From Candidatus Saccharimonadota bacterium (GTDB lineage Bacteria > Patescibacteriota > Gracilibacteria > BD1-5 > UBA6164), in NCBI GenBank assembly GCA_963677765.1, contig OY782392.1:300001-332000 (forward strand): a stretch of DNA of 32,000 nt, given 5' to 3'. Shown one piece after another: positions 7,053 to 20,697 of this stretch; the stretch's first letter is position 1, and each line of letters starts with the position of its first letter. Position numbers and translations under genes: made by a program. A model generated the notes under the pieces. The model was given only the letters and a program-made list of their open reading frames with translations. It made no database searches and had not been told where the DNA came from.

Positions 7053-7307
7053 ATGAAAAAAGGAATACATCCAGAATCTAAAGAAGTTTTATTAGTAGAT
7101 AGAAGTGCTGATTCAGTTGTAAAAGTAAAAACTACAGCTAAAACTACTGATACTTATGAACATGAAGGTAAAGAATACCCTTGTATTTTTATAGAAACTT
7201 CTTCAGCATCTCACCCATTCTATACTGGTGAACAAAAAATCCTTAAAACTGGTGCAGTTGATAAATTCTACGCTAGAATGAAAAAATCAGAAGCATTGAA
7301 AAAATAA
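7053..7307 (+). CDS. rpmE: 50S ribosomal protein L31
   Basis: MKKGIHPESKEVLLVDRSADS...SSASHPFYTGEQKILKTGAVDKFYARMKK. The classic MKKGIHP start and HPFYTG motif are present. The track ORF from 7011 is an upstream over-extension. Confidence 0.9.
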   Translation: MKKGIHPESKEVLLVDRSADSVVKVKTTAKTTDTYEHEGKEYPCIFIETSSASHPFYTGEQKILKTGAVDKFYARMKKSEALKK

Positions 7308-7310
7308 AAA

Positions 7311-7346
7311 TAAACTCTACATTTTAAGTAGAGTTTATTTTTTTAA
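7311..7346 (+). terminator. rpmE intrinsic terminator
   Basis: Stem taaactctac / gtagagttta, 7-nt loop, T-run at 7338-7346. Confidence 0.75.
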
Positions 7347-7354
7347 AAAAAATA

Positions 7355-7381
7355 TTGACTTATATTTTTTTTATATATAAT
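7355..7381 (+). promoter_or_regulatory. Putative rplJL promoter
   Basis: TTGACT at 7355-7360 and TATAAT at 7376-7381. The spacer is only 15 nt, so the exact -10 is uncertain. Confidence 0.45.
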
Positions 7382-7384
7382 CAT

Positions 7385-7518
7385 AGTACTTTCTATGTCA
7401 AAGACAGTGGGCACAAAATAAGACCTACCGAGATAATAGAGGAATAGATTTTAAATTAGATATAAAGTTTAAAAAACTCTAATCCTTTTTCTTTGACTTA
7501 AAGAAAAAGGATTTTTTA
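7385..7518 (+). promoter_or_regulatory. rplJ 5' leader with terminator-like hairpin (L10-leader-type attenuator candidate)
   Basis: About 180-nt untranslated leader. It contains ...caaagacagtgggcacaaaataagacctaccgag... and a strong hairpin aatcctttttcttt / aagaaaaaggatt (7481-7513) followed by a T-run, ending about 45 nt before the rplJ ATG. Confidence 0.55.
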
Positions 7519-7560
7519 ATACTAGAAAGTAATAGTTTATATTGATAATAAAAAACAACA

Positions 7561-8133
7561 ATGGCTGTTTCAAAACAAAAAAAAGTTGAGATATTTAACG
7601 AATTAGTTGAAAAATTCAAATCTGCTGAATCAATTGGTTTTTCATCTACAAGTGCACTTAGTGTTGAAGATTTTGCAAAACTAAGAACTTCTTTAAGAGA
7701 AGTAGGATCTACTTATACTTTAGCTAAAAAAACTATTATAGTAAAAGCTATAAAAGAAGCTAGAGATATTGAAATTAACTTATCAGACTTAGAAGGTCAA
7801 ATCTGAGTAGTATGTTCTAATGAAGATGCTGTAGCTGGTTTAGGTAAAGTTAACGATTTCATGAAAGCTATAAATAAAGATGCTGATAAAATGGAATGGG
7901 CATTATCTATATTTGAAGGAGAATTAAAAGACAAAGAAGAAACAAAAATAATTGCTTCTATGCCTTCAAGAGAAACTTTACTTGGAAGATTGGTTGGTTC
8001 TATGAAATCTCCTATTTCTGGAATGGCAAGATTCTTTGATGCTGCTGCTAAAGAACTTGAAACTACTGGAAAAGCAAAAGTTAGTGAATTAGAAGGAAAA
8101 AAAGAAGAAACTTCTGAAGAAGAAGCTAAATAA
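7561..8133 (+). CDS. rplJ: 50S ribosomal protein L10
   Basis: The two track ORFs (7561-7806 and 7861-8133) are in the same frame and are joined through a single TGA=Gly at 7804-7806. The 190-aa product has an L10-like sequence and an acidic C-terminal tail. Confidence 0.9.
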
Positions 8134-8140
8134 TTGATAT

Positions 8141-8280
8141 TTGGTTCATTGATTCCCTATTTTTAGGGAGTCATTAACTAGTTATCAATAAAATAACTAG
8201 AATAGTTCATTGTAGAGCTTGATTCAGTGTCTGTTAAGAACTGAATCTAACGGATATTGAACTAAAATTCTACAATGAAA
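8141..8280 (+). other. Structured rplJ-rplL intergenic RNA element (three nested or adjacent hairpins)
   Basis: Hairpins are gattcccta/tagggagtc (8151-8172) and ctagttat/ataactag (8178-8200). A long-range stem ttcattgtaga/tctacaatgaa (8206-8216 with 8269-8279) encloses gattcagt/actgaatc (8221-8247). Confidence 0.5.
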
Positions 8281-8320
8281 TTTTAAAAAATTTTATTTTA
8301 TATTTTTAATTTTTGCAAAA

Positions 8321-8695
8321 ATGGCTGAATTAACAAAAAATGCACAACAAATTATGGACTTAGTTAAAGAATTAACTATAGTTGAATTAAATGACTTAGT
8401 TACTGCTATGGAAGAAGAATTTGGTGTTAGTGCTGCTGCTCCTGTTATGGTTGCTGGTGCTGGTGCTGAAGGTGGAGCTGATGAAAAATCAAGCTTTAAC
8501 GTTGAATTAACTTCTGCTGGTGCTTCTAAAATCGGTGTAATTAAAGTTATAAGAGAAATAACTGGATTAGGATTAAAAGAAGCTAAAGATATTGCTGATA
8601 ACGGTGGTATGATTAAAGAAGGAGCTTCTAAAGACGAAGCTGAAGAAATTAAAGCTAAATTAGAAGAAGCTGGTGCTTCTATCGAATTAAAATAA
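8321..8695 (+). CDS. rplL: 50S ribosomal protein L7/L12
   Basis: 124 aa: ...[23 protein letters not shown]...[27 protein letters not shown]...[14 protein letters not shown]. No TGA codons. Confidence 0.95.
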
Positions 8696-8702
8696 TTCTA
8701 TT

Positions 8703-8738
8703 AAAAAAAGATAAACTTATATAAGTTTATCTTTTTTT
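8703..8738 (+). terminator. rplL intrinsic terminator
   Basis: Perfect palindrome aaagataaactta-ta-taagtttatcttt followed by a T-run. Confidence 0.8.
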
Positions 8739-8862
8739 CTTTTAAATGTTTTTTCTTAACAAAAACTTAACAAAAACTATATTTTTTATAGCATAAAAAT
8801 TGACATAGACTAACATTTTTATAAAATGTTTGAGCTTATAATTATATAATAATTTGATACAT

Positions 8863-9285
8863 ATGAAATATTTATATTCACTAGTATTATTAGTATTCTT
8901 AGCTTCTTGTACAAATGGAGCATGAGTGACTAATGAAGAAACTGTAGATAATGAAAATACTTCTACAGAAGTAACAAACTCTGAAATTGATGAAGCTATG
9001 GAAGAAACTTTTTCAGAAGAAGAATCTAATGAAGGTCTAACTATGTTAGATGCTACATATACTAACCCTCAAGCAGAAATTGATATGAAAATTTACTATA
9101 GCTTAAACGAAGCTAATGAAATTGAAGAAATTTATGCTGAAGCTAGTAATTATGATATGAGTGCATTTAATGAAAATATCCAATATTTAGTAGGTAAAAC
9201 TATGGAAGAAGCAGAAAATGTTTATGTTTCTGGTAGTTCTCTTACTAGTGAAGCTTTCACAAGTGCTATAAAAAATAACATGTAA
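8863..9285 (+). CDS. Acidic lipoprotein with FMN_bind-like C-terminal domain (putative ApbE substrate)
   Basis: MKYLYSLVLLVFLASCTNGAG... has a signal peptide and lipobox LASC, and is joined through one TGA to the track ORF at 8926. The C-terminus ...IQYLVGKTMEEAENVYVSGSSLTSEAFTSAIKNNM resembles the end of FMN_bind domains (..VD.VSGAT.TS.A...A..). Confidence 0.6.
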
Positions 9286-9289
9286 TTAT

Positions 9290-10126
9290 ATGAAAAAATT
9301 TTCTAGAGAATTAATGTGATCAGTATTGAATATAACAATTTATGATAATAATATAGATTTAGAAATTATAGAAAATTGCTTTTTTGAGACTGAAAAATTT
9401 GAAAAAAAATACTCTAGATTTTTAGAAGATAGTTATTTAAGCTTGTTAAATAAGAATAAAAGTTCTCAAGAAATACCTTGAGAACTTTTATCTATTTTAA
9501 AGCTATCAAATAAAGTTTCACAAATTAGCAAATGATATTTTGATATTACTATACTTCCCTTTTTGGAAAATATCTGATATTGAATCAATAAAGAAGAAAT
9601 GAAGGAAGTATATTGATATAAAAATATAGTCATAAATGACAATACTATCAAGTTGGAAAATTGAGTATCAATAGATATTTGATCTGTATGAAAATGATAC
9701 ATTGTAGATAAAATATATAATATTCTTAATGAAAAATACAATGACTTTGTTATAGATTTTTGATGAGATATAAGAATAAAATGAAAACAAAAAATTTATT
9801 TAGAAGACCCCTTACAACTAAGTAAAAACATATGATATATTGAGTTAGAAAATAGCTCAATAGCATCATCATCTTCTAACAGAAGAAAAACAAAAAAATG
9901 ATGACATTTAATTAACCCCAAAAAAAATATAACAGATGATAAATTAGCAGTATATACTATGCATAAATTATCTAGTTTTTCTGATATATTATCAACTGCA
10001 TTATATGTTAGCCCTATAGAAGTTGCTTTAGATATAGTAAAAAAATCTAAATGACTTGAAGCTATGATTATAATGAAAAATTGAAAAATATATAAAACTA
10101 ATTGATTTAATATTAAAAATATTTAA
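9290..10126 (+). CDS. apbE: ApbE-family FAD:protein FMN transferase (no recognisable signal peptide)
   Basis: 278 aa with TGA=Gly: MKKFSRELMGSVLNITIY...SRFLEDSYLSLLN...SKGYFDITILPFLENIGYG...SIDIGSVGKGYIVDKI...VIDFGGDIRIKG...SSSSNRRKTKKGGHLINPKK...FSDILSTALYV. This matches the ApbE motif series. The start is 4 nt after the lipoprotein stop. Confidence 0.85.
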
Positions 10127-10128
10127 AA

Positions 10129-11631
10129 ATGATAAAAGAAGTAAAAGTAATTCCCTGATGTATTAGTTGTAGAAACTGTGAAAATGTTTGTCCTTCAGTT
10201 TTTAAAGTAAACCCAAAGTCAAAAGTAATTACTGATCAGTATGAATGAAAAGAATCAGAAATTTTACAAGCTGAAGCTATGTGTCCTGTTAATGTTATAA
10301 AAGTAAAACAAGCTGCTGGTTCAGTAAAAATTTCATTCAAAGATGCTACTTTAGTTGAAAAAAATTACCTAACACCAGATACTTTAGAATTAAAATTTAA
10401 TACTAAAAATTTTAAGTTTAAACCTGGTCAATATATTTCTTTACAAGGAAATGATTCTCTATGAAATTTTAGTCGTTCTTATTCAGTTGCAAAGTGAGAT
10501 GATAAGCATTTTACACTAAATATAAAACTTGAAAAAAAATGAAGAGGTTCTACTTTTCTTAAAAATTTAAAAATATGAAAGAGTATAAAATTTTTATGAG
10601 CTATATGAGCTTTTTACTTACAAAATAATAACAAACCAAAAGTATTAATAGCTACTTGAACATGATTAGCTCCTATGGTAGCAATGCTTGATAAAATTGA
10701 TAAAGATGTACAAAAAACTGTTATTTTTTGAGTGAGATATGAAAAAGATGTATATTATAAAGAATTACTTGAAAGTTATCCTAATACTAAAGTAATTATA
10801 AAAGTATCTAGACCAGAAGAGAAAACTATATATAGCAAGTGAAGAGTTACTGATGAAGTAAAAAATATATCAAAAGAATCTGAAGTATATATTTGTTGAA
10901 ATCCAGAAATGGTTGAGCATGTAAGAGAATGATTAGCTGAAAATTGACATGATGAAAAACTTATATTCAATGAAAGCTTTACTATATCTAGAAAATACCC
11001 TTGAAAATGCAAGGATATATTTTTAAATTGAAATATTCCTCATTTAAATAAATTATCTTGGGCAGTTATAATATTTTCTTTAACATTAATACCTTTTAGC
11101 TGGATTTATAATAAAATAAATAATAATCTATACTGAGACTTTTTATTCATAAACAACTATATGGGATTTATGTATGACCTTAGTTGGTGGTCAGTAGTAT
11201 TTGTAATGGCGATTAGACCTCTTGCAGACTTGTTTCCTAAAATTGGTATACTAAGTAAATTAGTTACTTTGAGAAAAGCTTTTTGAATACTATCTGCTTC
11301 AATTATTGTATCAAATTTTGTATGAAGTTCTGTATTTAATATAAATAAATTTTTAACTTATTTTACTATAGCTTGATGGGCTCTATATATGCCTTTGATA
11401 ACTAAATTAAGTGAAATATCTGCATTAATATTATTATTAACATCTAATAAATTATCTCAAAGAACTCTTTGAACTTATTGGAAAAAAATACAAAGATTAA
11501 GTTATATATACTTCATAACATGATGAATAATTGCTTGACTATACTTCCCTATGAAAGTATATCCTGTAATGGCTATAGTTATAATACTATGGTTTGCTGC
11601 TTTAATAAAATCATTAATAAAAAAAGACTAA
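10129..11631 (+). CDS. Fusion protein: ferredoxin (4Fe-4S) + FNR-type FAD/NAD(P)H oxidoreductase + C-terminal MsrQ/YedZ-like (ferric-reductase-type) membrane domain
   Basis: 500 aa, uninterrupted with TGA=Gly. N-terminus has PGCISCRNCENVCP...MCP. The FNR motifs are RSYS, GRGSTFL, IATGTGLAPM and YICGNPEMV. The C-terminal ~200 aa form about 6 TM helices containing AIRPLADL...LRKAFGILSAS and LTSNKLSQRTLGTYWKKIQRLSYIYF, similar to MsrQ. Confidence 0.8.
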
Positions 11632-11650
11632 TTAAAATTAGTCTTTTTTT
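11621..11650 (+). terminator. Intrinsic terminator of the redox module
   Basis: aaaaagacta-attaaaa-ttagtcttttttt. The stem includes the final codons K-D-stop. Confidence 0.75.
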
Positions 11651-11714: not shown

Positions 11715-12683
11715 ATGATTAATAAGCCAAATATTGTTATATCAAAATGTATTAATATAGACAATTGTAGATATAACGGAGATAGAGTTAATGATGATTT
11801 TTTAAACAAATTATGAAAACATGTTAATTTTATTGCTGTATGTCCTGAAGTTGCAATATGATTATGAACACCTAGAATGCCTGTAAAGCTATATTGAAAT
11901 CCTGATAGAAATATAGTAAAAATGTATCAAAGTAGCAAAAAAATTGACTTAACAGATAAAATGAATGATTTTTCTAATAAGTTTTTAAATAAATTAGAGA
12001 ATATAGACTGATTTGTAATGAAAAATAGATCTCCTAGTTGTTGAATAAAAGATGTAAAAGTATATCCTGACTGAGAATCTAAAATAGCTCATGGAAAATC
12101 TAGCTGATTATTTGTAAAAAATATAGAAAATATATTTGAAAATTATCCTTTAGAAGATGAGTGAAGATTAAAAAACTTTAGAATAAGAGAGTCTTTTCTT
12201 ACAAAAATATTTTGTTTAGCAAAATTAAGATGAGTTTTTGAATCATGAAAAATAAGTGAACTACAGAATTTTCAAGCTGAAAATAAATATTTATTTATGG
12301 CTTATTCACCAAAATATCAGGTAGAATTATGAAGAATAATAGCAAGTTATGATAAAACAAATTTTGAAGAAATAAAAAAATACTATCATGAAACTATATT
12401 AAAATTATTTAATAGTAAAAATGATACTTGAAAAATAATAAATGCCTTTACTCATATTTTTTGATATTTTAAAAACTCATGTTCAAAAGAAGAAAAAGAG
12501 TTTTTCCTAGAAACACTTGATCTATATAAAGAATCTAGAATACCAAGTAGTACAATAATAAATATATTAAATATATGGTCAATTAGAGATAAACAAGAAT
12601 ATATATTAAAACAAACAATTTTAAACCCCTACCCTAAAGACTTAATGGAATTAAGTGATAGTTGAAAACTATTAAAATTATAA
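11715..12683 (+). CDS. ybgA: YbgA-like protein (DUF523/TudS-like domain fused to DUF1722)
   Basis: 322 aa: MINKPNIVISKCINIDNCRYNGDRVND...FIAVCPEVAIGLGTPRMPVKL...NRSPSCGIKDVKVY... followed by a DUF1722-like helical half. E. coli ybgA lies upstream of phr, which fits this neighbourhood. Confidence 0.8.
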
Positions 12684-12705
12684 TTTATTTTTTTATTATA
12701 AGATT

Positions 12706-13122
12706 ATGGAAATTATAAAAATATTATGAGTATATTTCATATGATTTTTAACTTTATTAATACTAGATTATTTATGGTTATGAATAGTAACTAAAGATTT
12801 TATAATTAGAGAATTTTGAAGCCTTATAACAGTAGAAGAAAATTGAAGTATAAAGATAAATCTATTAGCTTGAATAATAGCTTGGTTAATAATATCTGCT
12901 ATGATAGTTACTTTTGTAACTCTAAAATACGATAATATATGAGATATTATATTATATTGAGCACTTTTAGGTTTTATGAGTTATGCTATGTATGACTTAA
13001 CAAATCTAACTTTTTTAAATAATTATTCATTAAAATTTACAATTGTAGATATAGCATGGTGAACATTTGTATGAACAATGATAGCTGTAAATAGTTTTTA
13101 CTTTTATAACTATATAAAATAA
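12706..13122 (+). CDS. DUF2177-family small membrane protein
   Basis: 138 aa with about 4 TM helices: MEIIKILGVYFIGFLTLLILDYLWLGIVTKDFIIREFG...YAMYDLTNLTFLNNYS. The family assignment is from memory of its typical sequence and of its co-occurrence with DUF1295 and photolyase genes. Confidence 0.6.
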
Positions 13123-13868
13123 TGGAAATATTAATTTTTATATTCATATTATATATTATATTATTTTTAATAAGTATAAAAATTAAAGATAACTCTATTT
13201 TAGATATATTTTGGTCATTATGATTCGTAATACAAGCTATTTATCTATATATAATAAATCAAGACTTTTCATTGATAAAAAATATAACAATTTTAATTAT
13301 ATTAATATGGTGAATTAGGCTTAGTTATTATATACTAAAAAGAAAGCTAAAGGATAAATCAGAAGATCCTAGATATGCTGAATGGAGAAAAAAATGGAAA
13401 TATTTTTATACTAGAAGCTTTTTTCAAGTTTTTATGTTACAAATATTGTTAATGTTTATTATTTCAACTCCTATATATATAATTTTTTCTTGAAAAGATA
13501 TAAACTTTTATGTTTTTATAATATGAATAACTATATCTATAATATGATTATTATTTGAAATAATATCAGATTCTCAAGTTAAAAAATACATAAAAGAAAA
13601 CTGAAAAAACAACAAAGTTTTTACTTGATGATTATATAAGTACTCTAGAAACCCTAATTACTTTTGAGAAAGTACTTTTTGGTTATGAATAGCTATAATA
13701 TCTAGTTCTATTAGCATATATGGTTTTATTTGATATATAGTAATAACTACTTTATTGCTATTTGTATCATGAGTACCAATGAAAGAAAAAAGGCAATCAA
13801 AAAAAGAAAACTGGAATCAATACAAAGAAAAAACAAGCGTATTTATACCTTGGTTCCCTAAAAAATAA
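13122..13868 (+). CDS. DUF1295 (steroid 5-alpha-reductase-like) membrane protein
   Basis: 248 aa. The ATG overlaps the previous TAA by 1 nt. Contains ...SEDPRYAEWRKKW...ISDSQVKKY...GGLYKYSRNPNYFGESTFWLG..., the NPNYFGE signature of the family. Confidence 0.75.
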
Positions 13869-14090
13869 AAATACCTAGTATATTTTAAATTTTATAAATA
13901 AGTAATAAAAAACGTTAATTTTTAAAACATTCCACTTCGTAAATAAAATATATAAATTTTCAAAAACTTGCCCAATCAAAGATTGGACTTCAAACAGTTT
14001 GAAAATTTATATATTTTATATTTACTTGTTACATTTAAAAATTAAATTTTTTTTATTATCTTATTTAAAAATTAAATACTAGGTATTTTT
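13866..14090. repeat. About 225-bp imperfect palindrome (long inverted repeat) between convergent genes
   Basis: The outer 15 nt, aaaaatacctagtat / atactaggtattttt, are perfectly complementary. An inner perfect 20-nt pair lies at 13945-13964 and 13998-14017. A central mini-hairpin is ccaatc-aaa-gattgg (13972-13986). The arms are about 105 nt and mostly complementary by hand alignment. Confidence 0.8.
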
Positions 14091-15548
14091 ATTTAAGAAA
14101 TTTTCTTTTAATTTTTTAACAGCTTCTATATCAATCTTTTCAAGATTTTTTACAACAAATGGTTGTCTAGTTTTTTTGAAAGTATCAATATTTTCAGATA
14201 CAAAAGACCAATACAAATAATTAAAAGGACAAGAATCACTTTCATACTTATTTTTAACATTATATTCACAATTTGTGCAAAAGTCTGACATTTTGTTAAT
14301 ATAATTTCAACTAGAAATATATGGTTTTGTAGCTAATCTTCATCAATCAGAAAATTGACTCATTCATAATACATTTGGTGAAACTACCCATTCAAAAGCA
14401 TCGCTATATTTTTCAAAGAACCACTTATTAATTTCTAAAGGGGTTACTCAAGTTAATAAGCAATAATTTCATATAACCATAAGTCTTTCTATATGATGTC
14501 AATAACTATTTTCTAAAACTCTTTTAATACTAGTTTTTAAACAATTCATTTTACAACTATCTAAATTTTTTCACCAAAAATATACTGGAAGAGTATTAGA
14601 ATTGTTAAAATAATTATTTTTATAAATATCATCTTTATAAAAATGAAAAAAATGATACATATATTCTCTCCATCAAATAACTTGTCTAATAAATCATTCT
14701 TTGTTATTTATTTCTGTATTTTGATTTTCTATTACAGAAACTACTTCTCTTGGTGACAATAATCAAAAATTTATAGCTGTAGATAAATTAGAATGATAAA
14801 CATAATCATCATTTTCATACATAGCATCCTCCAGTTTTCAAAAGTTTGGAAGATTATTTTTTACAAAATAATTCAATAAAATTATAGACTGTTCCCTATT
14901 TGTAGGATAACTTATAAATCAATCAAAATTATAAAATTTTTTTGCTTCTATTAATCATCTTGTTTCATCTAATATAAGTTGATTAACTGATTTGTGATTT
15001 TTATCAAATCATCTATTATCTTTATCATAATTCCATTTTCATCATATTGGATTATTTCAGTCCATTAAAATATCAAACTTTTTTCTCATATATCTATAAA
15101 AAGTCTCCATAACAGGAGGCTTTTTATATTTTGATAAAAACTCTTTATGACTTAAATAAAAACTTTGATTATCTTCTAAAAAAATTAAATCAATATTATT
15201 TGAAGTTAATTTATCTTTTATCTTTAAAAAATTTTCATAAACATAGTTTTCTACAGGTTTTATAACATAAACTTTTGAGAATCATCATTTATTACAAAAA
15301 TCTAAAATTTCATTGTAATAACTATTTGAGACCTTAAACTCTCATGAAAATCCTTTATTATTTAATTCTTCTATAAAATTATATCACATTGCATAATCAA
15401 ATATTTTTGATTTTATATTCAAACTTAAATTTTCATCATTAAATCTTATATTTCAATTATGATGAATATATAAAAAATACTTTGATAAACTTGTATCAAA
15501 ATAGTTTATATTTATTTGATTATATAATATTAAAAAAAAGCTCTTCAT
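14079..15548 (-). CDS. FeS-BCP type cryptochrome/photolyase ((6-4) photolyase PhrB/CryB-like, iron-sulfur cluster containing)
   Basis: 489 aa: ...GWREYMYHFF...SYGHHIERLMVIGNYCLL...[55 protein letters not shown].... The C-terminal Cys pattern and the PFN.LYW motif are typical of the Fe-S bacterial cryptochrome/photolyase group. TAG at 14079-14081. Confidence 0.85.
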
Positions 15549-15871
15549 TATTTTTTTATTAATTGATTTAATTTATTTTTAGCATCATCTAAATTAGATT
15601 CATAAACAATGATATCATCCTGTAAAATAATTCATTTATCATTATTTTTTAAAAATACTATATTATCCCATCATTTAAAATCACAAACCTTATACCATAT
15701 ATTTAAAAGATTTTCTCTATCTTTAGAGTCTATTTGTAAATATTTATTTTTTAAAGCTAAGTTATACTTTTCTCTTTCATAAGGTCTTAATCTATGTGAT
15801 ATACTTCTAGATCAAATATTAATTCAAGATTTTTTTCATCTAGTTAAATTATCAATATGTTCAAGTTTCAT
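15548..15871 (-). CDS. Hypothetical 107-aa protein translationally coupled to the FeS-BCP gene
   Basis: MKLEHIDNLTRGKKSGINIGSRSISHRLRPYEREKYNLALKNKYLQIDSKDRENLLNIWYKVCDFKGWDNIVFLKNNDKG...*. Its TAA overlaps the downstream ATG by 1 nt (TAATG). No family recognised. Confidence 0.55.
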
Positions 15872-16014
15872 AAAAACTATTTATTAACTAATATTAAAAA
15901 TATATTAAAAAAAAATAATATTTTTGCAAATATACTTAAATATATATAATCTGTATATAGGATTGAAGCCCCTTAGTACATTTAACTATTTTTAAAAAAG
16001 TTATTTGTAAATAA

Positions 16015-17502
16015 ATGAAAAAAGATATACAACTTATTTGGTTTAAAAAAAATCTAAGAATAAAAGACAACGAAGTATTTAATTATTTAGATAGAGATAC
16101 TGAAACAGTCTGATTTTATTTAATAGAAGATGAAATAGTAAGACAAAGAGATTTTTCATACTTTCATTTAAAATTTATTATTGAAAGTCTAATAAACTTA
16201 GAAAAAAATTTAAAAAAACTAAATATAAAACTAATTATAAAAAAATCTAATTTTGAGGATTTTATAATAAATATAGAAAAAGAGTTCAATATAAAAATAA
16301 TAGTTTCAACTCAAGAAACTTGAAATATAGCATCATATAACAGAGATTTAAGAGTTATTAATTTTCTAAAAAATGAATCTATTGATTTTTTAGAAGTGGA
16401 AAATAATTGAGTAGTTAGATGATTAAAAAATAGAGATAACTGGACAAAAATTTGGAATAAAAGAATGTGAAGTGATATTTTTTTAGAAAAGAAATTTAAA
16501 AAATTTAATAATTTTGAGAAAGAGCTAATTCAATCTAAAATAATTCTAGAAAAATATAAAGAAAAAACAAAGCATTTAAAAACTCAAGAATGATGAGAAG
16601 ATAATGCAGTAAAAATTCTAGATAGTTTTTTAGATAATAGGTGTAAAAATTATTCCTATAACATATGAAAACCTTATGAATCAGAACACAGTTGCTCTAG
16701 ATTATCACCATATATAACATATTGAAATATATCAATAAAGTATATTTATCAAAAATCCATAAAAAAAATATTAGAATTAAAGACTGATTTAGATGAAAAT
16801 AATCTCAAAAAAATCAAACAAATAAACTTTTTTTTAGCTAGAATTCATTGGCAATCTCACTTTATCCAAAAACTTGAGTCTCAAGTAGATATTGAGTATA
16901 AAAATTTGAATAAAGAATTTGATAAAATTAGAAATAAATCTGATATAGAAATAATAAATAATTTTTTTAATGCAAAAACTGGTATACCATATTGTGATGC
17001 CGCAATTAAATGTTTAAAAACAACTTGATGGATAAATTTTAGAACAAGAGCATGTTTAGTAAGCTATATATGTAATACAATGATGCAACCATGGCAATCT
17101 ATTTGAAAAAGACTTGCATGCTTATTTACAGATTATGAACCATGAATTCATTATTCACAGTTACAAATGCAATCCTGAACTACAGGAATAAATACCATAA
17201 GAATTTATAATCCAATAAAACAGTCAAAAGAAAAAGATCCTCAATGAAAATTTATAAAAAAATGGATACCAGAATTAAAAGAAATTGATATAAAATATAT
17301 ACATGAACCATGGCTTAGTGATAAAAAAATTGAATGATATAGTAATAAAATTGATATAGAAGAGTTAAACAAAAAAGCAAAAGAAGTATTATGGTCTACA
17401 AAAAAAGAAATAACTAAAGATAAAAAAAATAAAATAATAAAAAAGCATGCTAGTAGAAAAAAAATAAATAATAAAAACAAAAAGCAACTAACAATTTTTT
17501 AA
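16015..17502 (+). CDS. Cryptochrome/photolyase-family protein, divergent subfamily, with lysine-rich C-terminal tail
   Basis: 495 aa: MKKDIQLIWFKKNLRIKDNEVF...SRLSPYITYGNIS...FLARIHWQSHFIQKLE...GIPYCDAAIKCLKTTGWINFRTRACLVSY...[38 protein letters not shown]. The tail is KKEITKDKKNKIIKKHASRKKINNKNKKQ. Confidence 0.8.
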
Positions 17503-17504
17503 AT

Positions 17505-17645
17505 ATGAAAATTTATGAAAGATGACAGTACAAAGAGGCAAAGCTATGCCCTATTTGTAAAAAATATTTTAGTATAAGAAAAAAATGGAAAAATAGTTTT
17601 GAACAAGTAATTTATTGTAGTGATAAATGTAGAAAAAATAAATAA
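17505..17645 (+). CDS. DUF2256 small zinc-ribbon-like protein
   Basis: 46 aa: MKIYERGQYKEAKLCPICKKYFSIRKKWKNSFEQVIYCSDKCRKNK. It has the CxxC...RKKW...YCSxxCR pattern of the DUF2256 proteins that commonly flank photolyase genes. The start is 2 nt after the previous stop. Confidence 0.7.
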
Positions 17646-17731
17646 TTGATATTAGAACTAAAAAAAATATACTATAATTAGTAGACGGATAAAGCTCTCG
17701 CCAATTTGTTTTATCCTATAAAAATAAAAAC

Positions 17732-19051
17732 ATGTACAAAAAATCTATTTTTTGGTTTAGACAAGATTTAAGAACATATGATAATGTTTGACTTTATAAT
17801 GCTGTAAAAAATTCAGAAAAATTATTAGTTATATTTATACTAGATAAAAATATAATAAATGATTTTTTATGATTAAACGATAAAAAATTCTGATTTATAA
17901 GAGAAGCTTTGGAAAGATTGGATTCTGAGATAAAAAGTTTATGATGAGAATGATTAAAAGTTTTTTATGATAAACCTGAAACCTTAATTCCTGAACTAAC
18001 TAAAAAATACAATATAAATGCAGTATTTACTAACAGATCATACTGAAATTATTGAAAAAAAAGAGATGAAAGCATTAAAAATACTTTATCTAAAAGTAAT
18101 ATTGAATTTTTAAGTTATAAGGATTACTTACTAGTAGAACCATGGGAAATAGAACAAAGAAAGGTATTTACACCATTTTATAAACTATGGCAAAAGATAG
18201 ATTTTGATACTAATGAGTACAAAATAACTGATAAAATAGACTCAATAAAAATAGAAGAAAATAATAAGGCAAAAGATTATATTTCTATAGAAAAACATCC
18301 TTATTTTACAATGGATTTTTGAGAAAAAAGACTGGAAAAATACATTACAACTGATTATGATTTATATAGAAATGACTTAGATAAAGACTGAACATCAAAA
18401 CTATCACCATATCTTAGATTTTGAATATTTTCTGTAAGACAAATATATAATTTAGCAAAAAATATTAACCAACATTTTGTTTCAGAAATGGCTTGGAGAG
18501 AATTTTGGCAACATATTGATTACTATTTCCCTGAAACTAAAAAAATAGAATTTCAAGAAAATAAAAGACATATAAAATGGAGACATGATGAATACTTATT
18601 TGAAAAATGGTGTAATTGAGAAACTTGATATCCTGTTGTTGATGCTGCAATGAAACAATTAGTAGAAACCAATTGGATGCACTGAAGAGCTCGTATGATA
18701 GTTTCTAGTTTTCTAACAAAAGATTTACTTATAGATTGGAGATGGTGAGAAAAGTTTTTTAAAAAACATTTACTAGATTATGATGAAAATGTAAATTATT
18801 GAAACTGGCAATGGTGAGCATCTGTATGAGCTGATCCAAAGCCATTACGTATATTTAATCCTATACTTCAATCACAAAAATTTGATAGCCAAGCTAAGTT
18901 TATAAAAAAATATATACCTGAACTAATAAACCAAAATACAAAAGCTATCCATGACCCAATAGATAATGAATTAGATTATACTAGAATAATAGTTAATCAT
19001 AAAGAGGCTCAAAGAGAAACTAGATTAGTTTATAAATGAGAAAAAGACTAA
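17732..19051 (+). CDS. phr: Deoxyribodipyrimidine photolyase (class I-like or Cry-DASH-like CPF member)
   Basis: 439 aa: MYKKSIFWFRQDLRTYDNVGLYNA...TSKLSPYLRFGIFSVRQ...MAWREFWQHI...[37 protein letters not shown]...[31 protein letters not shown]. Confidence 0.88.
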
Positions 19052-19068
19052 AAAATTAGTCTTTTTTT
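19041..19068 (+). terminator. phr intrinsic terminator
   Basis: aaaaagacta-aaaaat-tagtcttttttt. It is nearly identical to the terminator at 11621-11650 and again includes the codons K-D-stop. Confidence 0.75.
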
Positions 19069-19125: not shown

Positions 19126-20697
19126 GTGTTCCAAATAAAAACAATAAATATTCAAAACTTTAGAAGCATAGATTTTCAAACAATAAATTTTTGAAAAAAT
19201 AAAACAGTTCTAGTATGAAAAAACAGCAGTTGAAAAACTGTGATTTTAAAAGCAATTGAAAAGTTATTAAATTCAAAAAAAATAAAAAGAAAAGATTTTT
19301 TAAACAAAAACAAAAAATTAATAATAGAAGCTATTATAGTAAACAAAGGTAAAGAAGTTTCTATAAAAATAGAATCTATATTTAATGAAGAAAAGCAAGA
19401 AGCAAATACAAAAAAAATAAATTTCAACAACGAAATTGAAAAAATAATAGAAAAAATAAATGTTATATATATACCTAGTGACAGAAAAATAAACAAAGAC
19501 AATAAGGAGAATTGATATATGAAACTTATTGACCTAATATTAAAAAACAAAGAAATAAATCAAAAAAAATCAATATATACTAAAAAAGAAGTAAAAAAAC
19601 TAAACAAAAAATCTTGAAGAAAGAAAACAACTCTATTAATAACTCTTTTAAGACTATATTTATATAGTATAAATAATAAAAATAACAAAGATTTTACAGT
19701 TTTTATTATTGATCAACCTGAAAACTTTTTGCATCCACATGCAACAAAAATGATTGATTCTATACTACAACAAATATGAGAATTAGAAAATACACAAATA
19801 TTTTACTGTACTCATTCACCTGAACTAGTTTCAAATTTTAGAAAATGAAAATATGAAATTTCTGATATATTATTCGTAAAAAATGAATGAGGGATAACTA
19901 AAACTCAAAAAATTGATAACAGATATTGAAGATTTAATAAAATAATGATAAATTTAATTTTTAAAAATGCTTCTATATTTTTCTCTGATGCTGTTATACT
20001 AGTAGAATGAGAAACTGAAAAGATATCTATACCAAATATATATGAAAATATAAACTGGAATAATTATTCTAAAATAAATAAAAAAAATATATCAAAAGAA
20101 GAAAAAATTAATTACTTTAACTTGAATCATAAAAATATTAGTGTTATTGATGTTTGATGAAAATGAGCACTATATGAGTGGTATGTTTTTGCTTGTGAGT
20201 TATTTTGAAGAGAAAATGTTATAGCATTAATAGACAGAGATGAAAATTTCTATATAGATCGTGATATGATTATAAAATCTATTAGAAAAATATATAAAAC
20301 ATGACCTATTTTTGAAAATGATTTCAAAAAATATAATTGGATAGTCTTAAATTGAGAATTTGAAAACTATTATAAAATTGATTCTATAAAAACATATATT
20401 ACAGAAGTTATTACTTCTAGAGCTGAAAAATTTTGAGAAGATTTCGATCAAGAAAAATTTGATTTAAGTTTAGATAAATTAGATTCAAGATTAAAAAAAT
20501 TAAAACAATCAAAGAAAATATCTAGTGAATATGAAAGGTTATTTAATTCATATTTTAGAAAATATTCAAAACCTACTATAGCATTTAATTTATCAACATG
20601 GTTAGCACAAAATAATTGATATGATGAAGAATTATTAAAAATATTTGCAAATATGATTGAAAAATTTGATAAAAATGAATCTAAAAATAAAAAATAA
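19126..20697 (+). CDS. OLD-family ATP-dependent endonuclease (ABC-type ATPase + Toprim), stand-alone
   Basis: About 523 aa: (V/M)FQIKTINIQNFRSI...LVGKNSSGKT (P-loop), FIIDQPENFLHP (Walker B-like), YCTHSPELV, then Toprim AVILVEGETEKISIP (20002-20019) and ALIDRDEN. The start is uncertain between GTG 19126, which gives the canonical N-terminus, and ATG 19084. Confidence 0.75.

Follow-up and report, generated by a model that had tools for sequence, protein, structure and literature searches.

A probable light-damage locus of a recoded Gracilibacterium and a gene family linked to its photolyases

Why does a bacterium with a reduced genome hold three members of the cryptochrome/photolyase family (CPF) side by side with five other genes, and do these eight genes belong together? 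This question is raised by a 32,000-nucleotide stretch of contig OY782392.1 (assembly GCA_963677765.1), hereafter the window, in which a block of ~7.3 kb at 11715-19051 contains exactly eight intact open reading frames (ORFs) under genetic code 25. Their boundaries are those of an earlier annotation made from the DNA sequence alone (the original prediction), and the families that it had named all scored above their Pfam thresholds. The gene order is a RudS-type fusion of TudS and DUF1722, DUF2177, DUF1295, FeS-BCP, orf107, CPF2, DUF2256 and PhrI. The block consists of two modules: Module A (rudS-DUF2177-DUF1295) and Module B, in which FeS-BCP and orf107 are divergent to CPF2, DUF2256 and a photolyase gene. 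Within the modules, the start of DUF1295 overlaps the stop of DUF2177, the stop of orf107 overlaps the start of FeS-BCP by 1 nt and DUF2256 starts 2 nt 3' of CPF2. We consider it likely that the block serves against light damage, lies on the chromosome of a code-25 Gracilibacterium as two operon-like modules and was inherited vertically. Photolyase clusters, light-stress operons, FeS-BCP, class I photolyases, NewCRY and RudS are known already, while the orf107 family is new.

When the window was translated with the standard bacterial code (table 11), almost no long ORFs were obtained. With TGA read as sense, long-ORF coverage summed over six frames rose from 6.9 kb to 39.9 kb. In-frame TGA makes up 5-10% of the codons in the window and GGN is nearly absent. 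TGA was found at conserved Gly positions of the photolyases (DNvGL, TgYP, gNWQWg) and TGG at conserved Trp positions, and one conserved Gly of PhrI is coded by GGN in three relatives and by TGA in the window and a fourth relative. Because TGA stands at conserved Gly positions, GGN is almost absent and the two are exchanged among the PhrI relatives, the code of the window was assigned as code 25 (UGA=Gly), and all gene models were built under it. The closest database proteins carry the labels Candidatus Gracilibacteria, Absconditabacteria or Altimarinota. The host is a recoded Gracilibacterium of the candidate phyla radiation (CPR, Patescibacteria), in line with the reduced CPR genome that had been proposed originally. 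In the cluster, GC lies at 0.19-0.25 and TGA accounts for 0.88-1.0 of the Gly codons. Both values resemble those of most other genes of the window, with the exception of the ribosomal-protein stretch at 7053-9285. Given this native GC and TGA-for-Gly share, the cluster genes were not recently imported. The choice of Gly codons is itself strongly gene-dependent: TGA represents 68-100% of the Gly codons in the other genes listed, only 0-8% in rpmE, rplJ and rplL (7053-8695) and 20% in a small ORF at 8863-9285. In these four genes GC is raised to 0.29-0.34. Highly expressed genes thus seem to avoid the reassigned codon.

Conservation of the block was analyzed in related loci (numbered with the prefix L) and in a neighbourhood census of +/-10 kb around 77-80 CPF2 homologues (species) of other phyla. 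In L083, in which CPF2 is 68% identical, the eight-gene order and the housekeeping flanks are unchanged, with DUF1722 only in the first gene, and in L001 (77%) Module B is unchanged up to the contig end. L085 (48%) contains seven families within 13 kb (DUF2177, DUF1295, FeS-BCP, CPF2, an orf107 homologue, a photolyase and DUF2256), which are shuffled and interleaved with other genes. Only the core is present in L086 (54%), where FeS-BCP and an orf107 homologue are divergent to CPF2 and DUF2256, and in L093 RudS, TspO, DUF2177, DUF1295 and a photolyase follow each other on one strand. DUF2177 is directly followed by DUF1295 in all six lineages examined (the window, L083, L085, L093, L094 and L095). 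The co-localisation is hence not unique to this genome, as the original prediction had expected. Across phyla, the core of Module B (CPF2, DUF2256, FeS-BCP and a further photolyase) recurs: in the census FeS-BCP was located near CPF2 in 29-31 loci and another CPF in 30-31. DUF2256 was detected within 10 kb of CPF2 in 36 of 77 loci; it lies at most 400 bp away on the same strand in 25 loci, and on the opposite strand in none. The five genes of Module B are under purifying selection, with ratios of nonsynonymous to synonymous substitution rates (dN/dS) of 0.09-0.48 against two relatives.

Two of the three CPF proteins resemble photolyases for which structures have been solved. In searches against the PDB, the FeS-BCP product matched PhrB (4DJA, 2.5e-84), 8IJY (1.8e-78) and CryB (3ZXS, 1.6e-78), and the [4Fe-4S] ligands C350, C438, C441 and C454 of PhrB all align with Cys (kmnC; dfCtnC; dsCpfn). 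Its dN/dS against orthologues is ~0.2-0.3. It is assigned to the FeS-BCP group, i.e. the prokaryotic (6-4) photolyases, with predicted activity, flavin adenine dinucleotide (FAD) and a four-Cys [4Fe-4S] cluster. PhrI is closest to class I enzymes (A. nidulans 1OWL, 3.7e-80; E. coli 1DNP, 4.1e-58), with class II reaching only ~1e-9, and keeps the equivalents of AWREF (E274), N378 and WQW/W382. Against TIGR03556 it scored 335 bits at a cut-off of 884.6. As this is far below the cut-off, PhrI is named class-I-like, and the 8-hydroxydeazaflavin (8-HDF) antenna type is not established. From these similarities PhrI is predicted to be a repair enzyme, a class-I-like photolyase for cyclobutane pyrimidine dimers (CPD).

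The third paralogue, CPF2, possesses both CPF domains, and its best match among solved CPFs in the PDB search reached only 6.7e-25, with matches spread evenly over the classes. Within its own clade E-values are ~1e-100, compared to ~1e-25 to every solved class, and relatives occur in at least 596 species. The clade shares the motifs RxHW(H/Q)(C/S)HFIQKLE and DYEPGIHYSQxQMQ. The equivalent of E274 is Ser in the window and Cys or Ser in 25 of 25 clade sequences, that of N341 is Phe in all 25, and no counterpart exists for the proximal Trp of the canonical triad (motif GNWQW). Without the E274 and N341 equivalents, CPF2 does not look like a repair enzyme, in contrast to FeS-BCP and PhrI; the original claim of three flavoproteins for light-dependent repair is therefore overstated.

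It was recently described that the NewCRY subfamily makes up 8% of the photolyase/cryptochrome superfamily, with VcCry2 of Vibrio cholerae as representative (Emmerich et al., 2020, PMC7736829). Its members lack E274 and N341, co-occur with class I and (6-4) photolyases and were set apart from other CPF classes as a separate cluster at E<1e-70; only a signalling role was deemed feasible, and VcCry2 was cited as binding FAD only (PMC7736829). By the same threshold CPF2 forms a separate cluster, with clade members at ~1e-100 or better and solved CPFs at the value given above at best. CPF2 thus fits the NewCRY (VcCry2-type) subfamily, an assignment made by the published description rather than by comparison with VcCry2. 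The three CPF proteins are placed here as FeS-BCP, class-I-like and NewCRY-type; the original prediction had named an FeS-BCP, a class I-like photolyase and a divergent CPF protein. Two other placements of CPF2 were rejected. The PhrSph98 'bifunctional' photolyases form a clade that is sister to class II and keeps N/D and Trp, whereas the class II model matched CPF2 at only 1.4e-13. A NewPHL was ruled out by the N-terminal antenna domain of CPF2.

The DUF2256 product scored 51.1 bits (gathering cut-off 25) and contains a four-Cys motif, CPIC...CSDKC. The domain is zinc-ribbon-like and among the commonest small-protein domains of unknown function; DUF2256 (Pfam PF10013) was placed in the TRASH clan (PMC4047054). 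In the searchable literature neither a mention of the NewCRY-DUF2256 pairing nor later NewCRY studies were found. For CPF2 the most likely role is that of a flavin-based photoreceptor or regulator or of an enzyme with a different substrate, in either case together with DUF2256.

Of the accessory genes of the locus, orf107 is the one most tightly linked to photolyases. It was left out of the photolyase-associated set in the original prediction, which has to be corrected: a gene of its family adjoins a CPF gene in 10 lineages, and two fusions were found. No Pfam or NCBIfam match was obtained for the orf107 product, and the 47 relatives tested belong to no curated family (Pfam-A, NCBIfam) beyond single marginal matches. 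A full search with a hidden Markov model identified only 66 members among 1.84 billion cluster representatives. The family is characterized by the motif GKxSGxxxGSRxxPH(H/R)LxxxE...R....N, and orf107 shows a dN/dS of 0.23-0.48. The homologue lies directly 5' of FeS-BCP in L001, L083 and L086, directly 5' of a class-I-like or other photolyase in L085, L009 and L003, and after FeS-BCP in L039. On an Arenicella-type gammaproteobacterial contig, DUF2256 is followed by a family member that overlaps a NewCRY-type CPF gene by 4 nt, with FeS-BCP and a further FAD_binding_7 protein nearby, and on another standard-code contig a family member is divergent to a photolyase N-terminus. In the proteins P0174 and P0186, an orf107-like domain is fused in-frame to a photolyase FAD domain (FAD_binding_7), which keeps the equivalents of E274, N341, N378 and W382 and has no usual antenna domain. 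Homologues were also found in eukaryotes (the glaucophytes Cyanophora and Gloeochaete, Bigelowiella and the fern Ceratopteris), all annotated as hypothetical and carrying long, organelle-type N-terminal extensions.

An AlphaFold (AF2) model of a correctly translated orf107 relative, built with 46 homologues, was obtained with a predicted local distance difference test (pLDDT) score of 94.3 and a predicted template modelling (pTM) score of 0.84. The fold is of the alpha/beta type, and the invariant GSRxxPHxL segment is modelled as a long, ordered loop. A Foldseek search of the PDB with this model yielded nothing significant (best E 0.13, template modelling scores 0.2-0.4); the weak top matches are nucleic-acid enzymes and are not counted as evidence. 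The model of the P0174 fusion is confident only in the orf107-like domain (pTM 0.48) and is silent on domain packing. That orf107 is a split-off N-terminus of FeS-BCP was rejected, as FeS-BCP is full length (its residue 56 aligns to residue 58 of 8IJY), and a FeS-BCP fragment would not fit a gene that also precedes other CPF classes.

Taken together, the orf107 family is real, conserved and uncurated, and tied in function to CPF proteins. From the fusions, the best-supported reading is that the orf107 product may be a direct protein partner of CPF enzymes. Going further, we tentatively suggest, as a proposal that we would rate below even chances, that orf107 founds an ancient family of dedicated photolyase partners, which serve several CPF classes and are needed for their full activity. 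According to this proposal, an alpha/beta domain of ~75-100 amino acids with an invariant basic GSRxxPHxL loop would bind FeS-BCP, class I, NewCRY and NewPHL-like proteins, with a role for example in engagement of the lesion or nucleic acid, in cofactor loading or in photoreduction, and the family would span CPR bacteria, Proteobacteria and plastid-bearing eukaryotes (glaucophytes, chlorarachniophytes, ferns). It is our speculation that the eukaryotic homologues could correspond to photolyase-activating factors that are defined genetically but uncloned, such as Chlamydomonas PHR1.

Work on this family is affected by the recoding. Public collections translate recoded genomes with TGA as Trp, and Trp stands at each TGA-coded Gly (P0121-P0131, P0001 and others), so that KKSGSNIGSR appears in databases as KKSWSNIWSR. 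Such mistranslation makes homology searches less sensitive and would distort predicted structures; correctly translated homologues were placed first for the orf107 family. The code of fetched loci was judged by in-frame TGA counts inside the CPF2 match. L009 (a record titled Candidatus Peribacteria), L003 and L039 have 3-6 in-frame TGA inside the CPF2 homologue, at a GC of 37-43%, and are recoded lineages too, despite their record labels.

In Module A, the product of the first gene contains TudS (DUF523) at residues 7-149 and DUF1722 at residues 191-307, both far above cut-off. Aligned to TudS (6Z92), it retains the first Cys, CPE and SPSCG; in TudS, three Cys of these motifs are Fe-S ligands, and the Glu and Ser are catalytic. 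It was described that RudS, a fusion of TudS and DUF1722, removes 4-thiouridine from tRNA and lessens the UVA growth delay, that it is often encoded in light-responsive operons together with photolyases, and that E. coli YbgA corresponds to the DUF1722 half alone (PMC11417400). From domains and motifs, the product is predicted to be a RudS-type tRNA 4-thiouridine desulfidase. The original description as YbgA-like is correct as to the families DUF523 and DUF1722, but E. coli YbgA is a stand-alone DUF1722 protein and the window gene a RudS fusion. In L083 (6524-6952) the first gene codes for a stand-alone, YbgA-like DUF1722 protein of 142 amino acids without TudS domain, and the orthologue in L093 is full length. 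Because the L083 gene has DUF1722 only, the fusion and the DUF1722-only state interchange between close lineages. In L093 (8514-12506; Gracilibacterium GCA_028691535.1) a gene for a TspO/MBR tryptophan-rich sensory protein lies between RudS and DUF2177. TspO is a membrane protein associated with light and porphyrin stress.

DUF2177 (84.1 bits, cut-off 26.9) and DUF1295 (184.8 bits, cut-off 20.4) were clearly identified, and the DUF1295 protein shows weaker similarity to Steroid_dh (8.6e-12), PEMT and ICMT. Both families were reported to be induced by singlet oxygen in Chlamydomonas as part of the SAK1 regulon (PMC4067076), and a triad DUF2177-DegV-DUF1295 was described next to heliorhodopsins (bioRxiv 10.1101/2021.02.16.431466).

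The features of the block are listed below.

Table 1. Genes and candidate elements of the block. Functions named for gene products are predictions; values with family names are E-values.
Feature	Position	Strand	Basis
rudS-like, 322 aa	11715..12683	+	Pfam 2-thiour_desulf 1.1e-33 + DUF1722 1.7e-34
DUF2177 membrane protein, 138 aa	12706..13122	+	Pfam 1.1e-23
DUF1295 membrane enzyme-like protein, 248 aa	13122..13868	+	Pfam 2.4e-54
Terminator-like hairpin in the convergent spacer, 3' of the FeS-BCP gene	13970..13988	-	consensus scan
FeS-BCP / prokaryotic (6-4) photolyase, 489 aa	14079..15548	-	Pfam DPRP 6.3e-24
orf107, 107 aa	15548..15871	-	no Pfam/NCBIfam family
Candidate control region of the CPF2 operon	15923..16008	+	conservation in L001, L083
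CPF2, 495 aa	16015..17502	+	FAD_binding_7 3.9e-48 + DNA_photolyase 1e-13
DUF2256, 46 aa	17505..17645	+	Pfam 1.5e-13
Class-I-like CPD photolyase (PhrI), 439 aa	17732..19051	+	FAD_binding_7 1.4e-66 + DNA_photolyase 6.5e-36
Hairpin repeat copy 1	11624..11650	+	pattern search of the window
Hairpin repeat copy 2	19044..19068	+	pattern search of the window

The region 5' of CPF2 harbors a promoter-like element (TTTGCA-16-TATAAT, 15923-15950), a GC-rich box (15959-15980) and an imperfect 9-bp inverted repeat (15978-15986/16000-16008). All three are kept in L001 and L083, even though synonymous sites are almost saturated. The RNA fold of the CPF2 leader was no better than that of shuffled sequences (z -0.5) and no covariation was detected, and a promoter scan was uninformative at 22% GC, with 82 sites found and 81 expected by chance. 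The region is hence a candidate operator, nothing more. Terminator-like sites were found four times in the region by the consensus scan versus 0.5 expected; the hairpin 3' of the FeS-BCP gene has an 8-pair stem with 4 GC pairs, followed by a T-run. DUF2256 and the photolyase gene are separated by 86 bp, which contain another inverted repeat, GGATAAA-N16-TTTATCC (17687-17716). L001 has an identical copy, in L083 only half of it is conserved, and the repeat could be an attenuator or processing site.

The two copies of the hairpin repeat bracket the eight-gene block. Copy 1 (AAGACTAA-TTAAAA-TTAGTCTT, then a T-run) overlaps the stop codon of the upstream Fer4-FNR-TM gene and copy 2 that of the class-I-like photolyase gene; both overlapped genes end in ...KD*. 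The pattern AAAAAGACTAA(0-2 nt)AAAATTAGTCTTTTTTT occurs exactly twice in the window versus 0.00 expected, and the copies share ~28 nt. The repeat is missing from all 98 fetched loci, close relatives included. It could be a terminator motif or a scar of insertion or recombination.

The flanks of the block are formed by ordinary chromosomal genes (Tex, MiaA, L31, L10, L7/L12, ApbE, LemA, TruB, signal peptidase, SSB, DnaJ), and an Rfam scan of the window identified four tRNAs only. Directly 5' of the cluster (9290-11631), a gene for an ApbE flavin transferase is accompanied by one for a 500-amino-acid Fer4-FNR-TM fusion, in which a 4Fe-4S ferredoxin domain is joined to FNR-like FAD and NAD domains and a C-terminal multi-pass membrane domain. 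L083 has both genes in synteny, the fusion gene overlapping that for DUF1722. Fer4-FNR-TM could serve the cluster as a redox partner, or have nothing to do with it. After the cluster (19126-20697) follows an intact OLD-family (AAA_15/AAA_21 + TOPRIM) nuclease-like gene with a GTG start at 19126, the product of which is shortened to 392 amino acids by ATG-only calling. It also follows the cluster in L001 and comes after EF-P and EarP in L083.

How might such a locus work? From homologues and gene order a scheme can be proposed, in which all activities, the regulation by light, the roles of NewCRY and DUF2256 and the mechanism of orf107 are predictions. Module A would counter UVA and photo-oxidative damage outside DNA. 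As is known from its homologues, RudS would strip photosensitive 4-thiouridine from tRNA via its [4Fe-4S] TudS domain, which would limit the cross-linking of tRNA and the growth arrest caused by UVA. DUF2177 and DUF1295, which are translationally coupled, might act on membrane lipids, DUF1295 being a putative membrane enzyme of the steroid-5-alpha-reductase/ICMT type. Module B would be a divergent operon pair for the repair of UV-B lesions in DNA. Its minus-strand operon (orf107, then FeS-BCP) would repair (6-4) lesions, and its plus-strand operon would encode NewCRY, DUF2256 and the class-I-like photolyase, of which the last would repair CPD. NewCRY and DUF2256 could form a photoreceptor/regulatory pair or an enzyme for another substrate, and orf107 could be a direct partner of the CPF enzymes, whose basic GSRxxPHxL loop would contact nucleic acid or the cofactor site of the partner.

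Several observations weigh against reading the block as one light-damage locus. Its closest syntenic relative, L083, has lost the TudS domain, so that tRNA desulfuration is dispensable in at least one lineage. In PhrI the equivalent of N341 is Gly (WMHGRARM) in the window and four relatives (L001, L083, L085 and L093), with GGN as its codon in three of these genomes and TGA in the other two; because of this Gly, the substrate contacts of PhrI deviate from the canon. No recognisable light-responsive regulator (LitR/MerR, sigmaE-ChrR) was found in the 32-kb window. RudS and DUF2177 were detected in 0 and DUF1295 in 1 of the 77-80 CPF2 loci of other phyla, and L094 and L095, deeper Gracilibacteria-like lineages, have DUF2177-DUF1295 without photolyases. 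Since RudS, DUF2177 and DUF1295 are nearly absent at CPF2 loci of other phyla, the link between Module A and photolyases holds only inside Gracilibacteria in the sampled data. The original proposal that the DUF genes are linked to photorepair can thus be kept, as a link of gene neighbourhood, for Gracilibacteria and, for DUF2256, across phyla, and not for RudS, DUF2177 and DUF1295 in other phyla. This distribution, the photolyase-free pairs of L094 and L095 and the housekeeping genes on both sides of the cluster would also suit an incidental co-localisation in a small, gene-dense genome, with no functional tie beyond the three CPF paralogues. We regard this as improbable, since the families stay together through rearrangement at 48% identity (L085), L093 has the entire run from RudS to a photolyase with TspO on one strand, the association of RudS with photolyase operons is published (PMC11417400), and across phyla CPF genes repeatedly have DUF2256, FeS-BCP and orf107 as neighbours, with start and stop codons that overlap. 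A UV-resistance island, gained by horizontal transfer, perhaps mobile and inserted at the 3' end of Fer4-FNR-TM, with the hairpins as scars and the OLD gene as baggage, would account for a hairpin that occurs twice in 32 kb at the bracketing stop codons, for the TOPRIM/ATPase gene directly after the block and for the patchy distribution of CPF2-type genes over many phyla. This reading appears very improbable to us: GC and the TGA share of Gly codons match most window genes; in the hairpin-free L083 the block lies between unchanged housekeeping neighbours, with FNR-TM overlapping the DUF1722 gene; next to the block there is neither an integrase or transposase gene nor a tRNA attachment site; and the repeats resemble ordinary terminators of stem and T-run. 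Vertical inheritance as a light-damage locus therefore remains the reading that we prefer.

For individual genes, other functions have to be weighed as well. CPF2 could be a third light-driven repair enzyme for single-stranded DNA, for RNA or for a lesion other than CPD, and DUF2256 the subunit through which it binds nucleic acid. The full two-domain CPF architecture with a conserved FAD core (DYEPGIHYSQxQMQ..RIYNP) speaks for this, as do the operonic association with bona fide photolyases in ~40% of loci and the lack of an attached output domain of regulator type; the DASH cryptochromes, the subject of work by Selby and Sancar in 2006, were reportedly also first thought to be non-repairing. 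We judge it rather unlikely, as the pyrimidine-contacting Glu and Asn are replaced in 25 of 25 sequences, the proximal Trp of GNWQW is absent and those who defined NewCRY saw only a signalling role as feasible (PMC7736829). The orf107 product might instead be a small, cis-linked regulator of transcription or translation of the adjacent photolyase operon, in keeping with its position as first gene of the photolyase transcription unit or directly 5' of it, its small size and basic character and the absence of another regulator in the locus. However, P0174 and P0186 fuse the domain to a photolyase FAD domain that looks catalytically complete, as is usual for subunits or partners and not for regulators; the searches revealed neither a helix-turn-helix nor any other known DNA-binding fold; and the eukaryotic homologues carry organelle-type extensions. 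A regulator is thus unlikely in our view, and a direct partner of CPF enzymes is the function favored for orf107. Against the tie of this family to CPF proteins stands a distant member, P0153 (144 amino acids; L096/L097 93-946), which has no CPF neighbour on a 3.5-kb contig. It is followed by an overlapping 140-amino-acid ORF without Pfam match and then by sugar-nucleotide enzymes, and the family may have a second, CPF-independent context.

If the locus is read in this way, a recoded Gracilibacterium with a reduced genome keeps a complete and conserved toolkit against UV-B damage of DNA, UVA damage of tRNA and probably photo-oxidative damage of the membrane, which bears on the question of where such episymbiont-like bacteria live. 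The main value of the locus lies in two testable leads. The operonic pairing of NewCRY and DUF2256 across phyla offers a two-component starting point for the function of NewCRY. The orf107 family is found coupled to photolyases of several classes, in some proteins as a fusion, and extends to algae and ferns; if its members are photolyase partners, more than 50 years of biochemistry on photolyases as single polypeptides missed a component.

Compared to known systems, Module A resembles the light-inducible phrB-litR-rudS type operons of Pseudomonas (class II LitR regulon) in that a TudS+DUF1722 gene with its motifs kept lies near a CPD photolyase gene. It differs from them in that the window has no LitR/MerR B12 photoreceptor and DUF2177 and DUF1295 are placed between RudS and the photolyases. 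As in the SAK1 regulon and the heliorhodopsin triad, DUF2177 and DUF1295 form a pair in a light-stress context; unlike in those systems, heliorhodopsin, DegV, cyclopropane fatty acid (CFA) synthase and sigmaE/ChrR are lacking in the window and the pair adjoins RudS and photolyases. The FeS-BCP protein shares the similarity of the catalytic domain and the four cluster cysteines with PhrB of A. tumefaciens and CryB of R. sphaeroides, whereas ~120 N-terminal residues are divergent, and the translational coupling of its gene to orf107 has no counterpart in characterised FeS-BCP systems. PhrI has the two-domain architecture and the AWREF, DWRWG and NxGNWQW motifs of class I CPD photolyases (1OWL/1TEZ, 1DNP), from which it departs by a Gly at the N341 equivalent throughout the Gracilibacterial PhrI clade and by its low TIGR03556 score. 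Likened by description only, P0174 and P0186 are similar to NewPHL (PMC7736829) in that their photolyase FAD domain is not accompanied by the canonical N-terminal alpha/beta domain and in that P0186 is extended at its C-terminus. The first domain is the catalytic one in the NewPHLs that have been described and the orf107-like one in P0174 and P0186. Finally, CPF2 is like NewCRY in being a bacterial two-domain protein of a large clade, without E274 and N341 equivalents, alongside class I and (6-4) photolyases, and proteins of its type, like those of NewCRY, were formerly annotated as CPD photolyases. Beyond what has been published for NewCRY goes the operonic pairing with DUF2256, which is adjacent on the same strand in 25 of 77 loci.

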